From Escherichia coli (GTDB taxonomy: Bacteria; Pseudomonadota; Gammaproteobacteria; Enterobacterales; Enterobacteriaceae), in NCBI RefSeq assembly GCF_048403405.1, contig NZ_CP183129.1: a stretch of 64,000 nucleotides of DNA, one strand, 5' to 3'. The notes below the pieces were generated by a model. The model saw only the letters and a program-made list of their open reading frames with translations, was not told the DNA's origin and did not search any database. The translations under genes and the position numbers were made by a program. Positions 63,160 to 63,276 of the stretch are shown in pieces. The stretch's first letter is position 1; each line of letters opens with the position of its first letter.

Positions 63160-63197
63160 CCGCAGAACTTTTCCGCAGGGCATCAGTCTTAATTAGT
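63160..63197 (+). promoter_or_regulatory. Sigma-E-type promoter of rybB
   Basis: gaactttt (-35-like GGAACTT) and gtcttaa (-10-like TCTnA) immediately upstream of the rybB 5' end. Confidence 0.55.
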
Positions 63198-63276
63198 GCC
63201 ACTGCTTTTCTTTGATGTCCCCATTTTGTGGAGCCCATCAACCCCGCCATTTCGGTTCAAGGTTGGTGGGTTTTTT
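63198..63276 (+). ncRNA. rybB: Small RNA RybB (sigma-E-dependent, Hfq-binding)
   Basis: gccactgcttttctttgatgtccccattttgtggagcccatcaaccccgccatttcggttcaaggttggtgggtttttt matches the remembered RybB sequence, including the terminator hairpin and T-run; located between ybjL and rcdA as in K-12. Confidence 0.88.

Follow-up and report, generated by a model that had tools for sequence, protein, structure and literature searches.

RybB belongs to a set of sigma-E-dependent small RNAs that has been described in some detail. MicA and MicL, other sigma-E-dependent sRNAs of E. coli, and MicV/VrrA of Vibrio resemble RybB in having a sigma-E promoter, in depending on Hfq and in repressing abundant envelope proteins (PMC4102768; PMC6694218), and both sigma-E control and the OMP mRNA targets of RybB are documented (PMC4102768; PMC1851643; PMC6694218). 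MicV and VrrA also have the seed core CRCUGCUUUU in common with RybB (PMC6694218), a core that is shared by sigma-E-dependent sRNAs and that was selected in experiments with randomised seeds (PMC6694218). In K-12 MG1655, the reference for the gene itself, ncRNA rybB (b4417) occupies NC_000913 887979-888057 between rcdA and ybjL.

The promoters read by sigma-E have likewise been modelled, with GGAACTT and TCAAA as the -35 and -10 sequences, A or G at +1, a strongly preferred spacer of 16 nt, a discriminator of 5 or 6 nt and an A/T-rich UP sequence (PMC1312014). The GGAACTT consensus was also obtained in a second study, which described UP elements at sigma-E promoters and, in modelling the UP effect, placed rybB in cluster 1 among the active basal promoters (PMC3326320). 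Another study lays emphasis on the C of the -10 as invariant and on AA within the -35 (PMC1851643), and the rybB promoter ranks among the strongest of its class (PMC4102768).

The DNA analysed here, referred to as the window, is a stretch of 64 kb from E. coli. A first-pass annotation had reported the 79-nt RybB RNA together with its sigma-E promoter at 63160-63276, to be checked by an Rfam scan and by alignment to K-12 rybB, and the two analyses agree that the RNA is present. Scanning the whole window with Rfam 15 returned five matches above their gathering scores, one of which is RybB (RF00110) at 63201-63279 on the plus strand, with 104.1 bits against a gathering score of 40, an E-value of 2.5e-20 and an untruncated span of model positions 1-79 of 79; a permissive scan (E<=1) of 62900-64000 gave RybB as its sole match. 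The Rfam model lacks the first three bases of the RNA, and alignment to MG1655 rybB places the 79-nt transcript at 63198-63276 (+), with 78 of 79 positions identical and hence no substantial divergence. The reported span was accurate as well, as its first base precedes the -35 element by four positions and its last base is the final U of the terminator. Its description as intact holds, although the gene is not identical to that of K-12: one base of the terminator stem differs (A69G), with pairing retained as a G-U wobble. MicA, MicL and MicV/VrrA are other genes, with other loci and sequences, and only RybB matches here. We are practically certain that the locus is the chromosomal rybB of E. 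coli, an independently transcribed non-coding sRNA with a sigma-E-type promoter that would depend on Hfq and regulate OMP mRNAs, and no sequence feature contradicts this identification. The coordinates of the gene and of the associated features are collected in Table 1.

Table 1. Positions of rybB, its promoter, its flanking genes and overlapping features in the window.
Feature	Position	Strand	Basis
ybjL, 561 aa, putative transporter / aspartate:alanine antiporter, upstream neighbour of rybB	61436..63121	+	ORF; ybjL label in matching RefSeq E. coli genomes; length equal to the K-12 ybjL interval
A/T tract AAATTTTTTT, UP-element-like, -54..-45, upstream of the -35	63144..63153	+	conservation in the footprint
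-35 element AGAACTT (consensus GGAACTT)	63164..63170	+	sequence; identity to K-12; footprint
-10 element TCTTA (consensus TCAAA, invariant C), conserved AG just before	63187..63191	+	sequence; footprint
rybB, 79-nt RybB small RNA	63198..63276	+	RF00110, 104.1 bits; 78/79 identical to K-12 b4417
5' seed domain GCCACUGCUUUUCUUU, core CRCUGCUUUU at 63200-63209	63198..63213	+	identical to K-12
Terminator hairpin, RNA nt 35-46 with 64-75, core stem C37-G73	63232..63272	+	MFE and Rfam consensus concordant
A69G relative to K-12, U41-A69 to U41-G69 wobble, 3' arm of terminator stem	63266	+	alignment
Attachment core TGGGTTTTTTGTT of P2/Fels-2-like prophages, unoccupied, overlapping the RybB 3' end	63267..63279	.	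shared junctions in N73 and 13TMH22; Klebsiella phage attR
U6 tail of the intrinsic terminator, RybB 3' end, expected Hfq-binding tail	63271..63276	+	sequence; kept in homologues
rcdA (ybjK), TetR-type regulator, convergent with rybB	63296..63832	-	ORF; internal ATG at 63832 gives 178 aa

The finding is correct yet ordinary, rybB being an already known textbook gene that is here essentially identical to the K-12 copy. It means that one arm of the sigma-E envelope-stress response is kept in this strain, with little significance beyond annotation, where the gain is an ncRNA feature to be added at 63198-63276 (+). The warning that the gene is easily missed in annotation was justified: the feature is given as 'none' in 30 of 30 RefSeq rows among the matches listed for RybB, whereas the curated MG1655 record does carry ncRNA rybB, and RefSeq labels certain other RNAs, such as 'RtT sRNA', but not RybB in those rows.

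With respect to K-12 MG1655, the locus has the same 79-nt length, seed, promoter and ybjL/rcdA arrangement. Both neighbours are those named by the first-pass annotation, and rybB lies on the strand of ybjL as it does in K-12. The ybjL stop codon precedes the RybB +1 by 76 nt, while the rcdA stop codon follows 19 nt past the RybB 3' end, a spacing equal to that in K-12, and the RcdA proteins of the window and of K-12 are identical at 177 of 178 residues. A weak sigma-70-like hexamer pair (TTGAGA-18-TAAATT, 9/12) was noticed at 63315-63286 on the minus strand, inside the 3' end of rcdA and facing rybB. From this pair (63286-63315) an antisense transcript to rybB could in principle arise, but its score is within chance expectation and the pair was discounted.

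The promoter has the architecture of the published sigma-E model, which bears out the sigma-E-type -35 and -10 elements reported earlier. Between the two elements lies a spacer of 16 nt, the -10 contains the invariant C, the discriminator ATTAGT has 6 nt and transcription starts at a purine (G at 63198), and the A/T-rich sequence expected upstream of the -35 is supplied by AAATTTTTTT. The 94 nt upstream of the RNA (63104-63197), which take in the interval from the ybjL stop codon to +1, are identical to K-12 at 94 of 94 positions. The pattern GAACTT-N15-17-GTCNNA occurs a single time in the 64 kb when both strands are searched, namely at 63165-63191, with 0.14 occurrences expected by chance, and a simple sigma-70 promoter scan of the plus strand upstream of rybB detected no sigma-70-like promoter.

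Conservation across the Enterobacterales follows the same elements. We scanned one genome per species (GTDB r220) for homologues with a 24-nt stretch within the RNA (+3 to +26) as the query and matched at least 120 loci in Escherichia, Salmonella, Citrobacter, Enterobacter, Klebsiella, Serratia, Yersinia, Proteus, Providencia, Xenorhabdus and others. From each locus -70 to +110 was extracted, so that the upstream parts played no part in the selection, and the 116 Enterobacterales genomes among the matches listed yielded 113 distinct upstream regions. In these regions, drawn from the matches listed, GAACTT at -33 to -28 is invariant (G-33 in 111 of 113) and is followed by T-27 in 112 of 113; G-12, T-11, C-10 and A-7 are invariant (113/113), as is T-1, and A-13 (107/113), T-4 (111/113) and A-3 (104/113) are nearly so. 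The A-then-T tract at -54 to -45 reaches 0.65-1.44 bits, compared with 0.04-0.4 bits at neighbouring positions, and about 0.03-0.7 bits are found in the spacer and upstream beyond -55 in the same 113 regions. With related sequences the footprint does not amount to a formal test; the unconserved positions in between serve as an internal control. The window bears the consensus base at all strongly conserved promoter positions. Given that sigma-E dependence has been demonstrated for the identical promoter sequence of K-12 (PMC4102768; PMC1851643), transcription of rybB in this strain is presumably sigma-E-dependent as well.

The RNA itself is organised into a free 5' end and a structured 3' module. 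From +1 it carries the conserved seed GCCACUGCUUUUCUUU, in which the window copy of the core reads CACUGCUUUU. The sampled homologues all agree over nt 1-26, partly through ascertainment, as the search was made with nt 3-26. The Rfam consensus leaves the 5' 25 nt unpaired, and a free 5' seed fits this unpaired region as well as the lack of support for the helix that the minimum free energy (MFE) fold of the full RNA (-24.6 kcal/mol) places there. This helix, nt 2-5 with 31-34, was rejected, as U32 is replaced by A in many genera without compensation and Rfam leaves the region unpaired. A further 5' helix proposed by RNAalifold (columns 7-13 with 33-39) was set aside; its pairs are invariant save for one single-side change and thus uninformative, and it would occlude the seed.

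At the 3' end, a 12-bp stem, an inner 3-bp stem and a U6 tail form a Rho-independent terminator of the kind expected of the Hfq-binding module of RybB. The isolated hairpin of the window allele has a folding energy of -21.8 kcal/mol (z -4.4). We recovered 60 distinct homologous RNAs of 76-84 nt among the matches listed, and RNAalifold on 30 diverse homologues predicts the terminator hairpin with compensatory double changes at 9 pairs, for example G-C/A-U at columns 42/75 and U-A/C-G at 47/70. Stem and loop sequences of enterobacterial orthologues accordingly differ with compensation, as in CCCAUCAACC/GGUUGAUGGG versus CCCGAUAGUC/GACUAUCGGG. RybB of Salmonella and other enterobacteria agrees with the window in the first 25 nt. 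The core of the sigma-E promoter and the architecture of the terminator hairpin are both common to Citrobacter, Enterobacter, Klebsiella, Serratia, Yersinia, Proteus, Providencia and Xenorhabdus. The U tail of the RybB terminator is expected to play a role in Hfq binding. This role of the tail has been described (PMC6694218). A simple terminator scanner left the RybB hairpin unflagged, apparently since its loop exceeds the 3-8 nt limit of the tool.

Taken as a working model, sigma-E freed by envelope stress would direct RNA polymerase to AGAACTT-N16-TCTTA-N6 and start transcription at G 63198, probably assisted by the upstream A/T tract, and transcription would stop at the hairpin and U6 tail (63232-63276). 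Hfq would then bind the 3' module, and the single-stranded 5' end GCCACUGCUUUUCUUU would pair with OMP mRNAs such as ompC, ompW and ompA. Pairing together with Hfq would accelerate the decay of omp mRNAs and lower the synthesis of new porins under envelope stress, with feedback on sigma-E activity (PMC4102768; PMC1851643; PMC6694218). Near-identity with the K-12 and Salmonella genes, including an identical seed and scaffold, suggests that the RybB of the window binds Hfq and represses omp mRNAs in this way. The first-pass annotation had described the envelope-stress circuit as conserved, which stands for the sRNA gene and its promoter and goes too far for the circuit as a whole, with rpoE, rseA, hfq and the omp targets located outside the window.

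Three other readings of the locus deserve consideration. One is that it encodes a small protein instead of, or besides, a non-coding RNA. The earlier statement that the gene has no ORF is not literally true, as a mechanical ORF list contains several ORFs of 23-71 aa across 63141-63443 on both strands, such as one of 29 aa with a GTG start at 63196-63285 (+) and one of 24 aa at 63141-63215 (+); what stands is that none of them has any sign of coding. Among homologues of 76-84 nt, the linker and loop vary by indels of 1 or 2 nt, which would break any frame, and on this pattern we rejected the small-ORF reading. Moreover, variation tracks base-pairing, with compensatory stem changes, and not codon position, the conserved block begins exactly at the mapped +1 just past the promoter and leaves no room for a ribosome-binding site, and sequence-plus-structure scoring accounts fully for the locus. 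A coding role is therefore extremely improbable. We find it just as hard to credit that RybB is a ybjL 3'-UTR product, made by read-through and processing and with the upstream promoter incidental, in spite of the common strand, the short distance from the ybjL stop codon and the absence of a strong terminator between ybjL and rybB in a simple scan. In the 113 regions among the matches listed, the -35 and -10 elements are invariant at a fixed distance to +1 while -70 to -55 is unconserved, as expected of a promoter and not of a processing site, and fusions spanning -65 to +20 showed a strong promoter with strictly sigma-E-dependent transcription (PMC3326320; PMC4102768).

The remaining reading accepts rybB as present and holds it to be impaired, with A69G weakening the terminator and Hfq-binding module and so lowering RybB levels. 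The substitution does lie in the terminator stem and was unseen in the 116 other-species genomes sampled among the matches listed, and a natural lesion of the same hairpin is known from AR_0017, in which a 9-nt deletion takes the energy from -22.4 to -7.1 kcal/mol. However, the exchange of U-A for U-G still pairs, changes the energy by 0.6 kcal/mol and preserves the structure, other genera also have G-U pairs at positions of the stem, and the exact allele is found in 738 E. coli chromosomes, which speaks against a deleterious lesion. We thus regard impairment as very unlikely and return to an intact chromosomal rybB, in which G69 is a common natural variant and no lesion.

In a comparison of 63104-63320 with MG1655, A69G at 63266 (K-12 A, window G) is one of two differences, the other being 63288 (K-12 C, window T), 12 nt downstream of the RNA. 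The hairpin has -21.8 kcal/mol with G69 versus -22.4 kcal/mol with the A69 of K-12, a cost of 0.6 kcal/mol, with the fold unchanged and the seed region unaffected. At the population level, rybB was found in 5418 of 5426 complete E. coli genomes (coverage >=80%); the exact 79-nt allele of the window accounts for 738 E. coli records, while 4681 differ from it by about one base. The G69 allele was absent from the 116 other-species genomes sampled (among the matches listed). The only divergent chromosomal rybB among 5,420 records belongs to AR_0017 (NZ_CP024886.1, locus L002 3001-3070), where the 9-nt deletion GAGCCCATC has left little of the terminator stem's 5' arm. Its hairpin, at -7.1 versus -22.4 kcal/mol, is no better than that of a shuffled sequence, and the deletion could either have arisen naturally, as a terminator mutation of rybB, or be an error of the assembly.

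The RybB 3' end is also an attachment site for phages. A study of more than 1,300 E. coli genomes lists it as hotspot 29 for Fels-2/P2-like prophages, with 109 of the genomes occupied (PMC10121019), and a Klebsiella island was reported to be inserted 'precisely within' rybB (PMC4048246). The site was noticed at 63266-63292 of the window and at loci L003 (3070-3110) and L125 (2480-2534). The core of 14 nt that the chromosome shares with the prophages, (A)TGGGTTTTTTGTT, corresponds to 63266-63279, and its first position is base 69, a G in the window, where the site is empty. In E. coli 13TMH22, ogr, D and tail genes stand directly after rybB; in E. coli N73, a phage integrase adjoins rcdA through the junction ...cataaATGGGTTTTTTGTTATCTAAAA; and a Klebsiella phage record has attR annotated over the same core sequence. 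The gene is complete in nearly all genomes because the RybB 3' end is restored by the sequence that the phage brings in. Two alleles occur downstream, GTTATCTAAAA in the window and K-12 versus GTTGCCTGAAA in phage-borne copies, AR_0017 and many other genera. In many of the 116 species genomes sampled among the matches listed, the phage-type allele precedes ...AAAATCAT, a pattern suggestive of widespread lysogeny at the rybB site. Here we speculate that G69, carried by roughly 14% of E. coli, might alter the formation or stability of the RybB 3' end, or alternatively reduce the integration efficiency of P2/Fels-2-like phages; that it is such a small regulatory or host-phage variant and not a neutral one seems very improbable to us.

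Other RNA features were seen elsewhere in the window. The tRNA-Ser(GGA) gene serW (22490-22577) is followed by three tandem units of ~179 nt (22612-23155), each closed by a repeat of the 3' end of the tRNA, ATCCCCCCCTCACCGCCA, together with a hairpin resembling a terminator. The Rfam family RtT matches with 45.1 bits, slightly above its gathering score of 45, and RefSeq calls certain copies 'RtT sRNA'. This repeat region (22490-23156) is covered to at least 80% in only 916 of 5,426 E. coli genomes, and in K-12 the serW-clpA gap measures 343 nt, so that far fewer ~179-nt units are present there. Adjoining serW, two type I-F CRISPR repeats with a 60-nt period form a one-spacer mini-array at 23158-23245 (-), of which the repeat at 23218-23245 matches CRISPR-DR4 in Rfam with 50.1 bits. 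Finally, a strong full-length match to STnc130 (RF02084), an enterobacterial sRNA family, lies at 7530-7664 (+) with 140.1 bits against a threshold of 55 and terminates in a GC-rich terminator hairpin.
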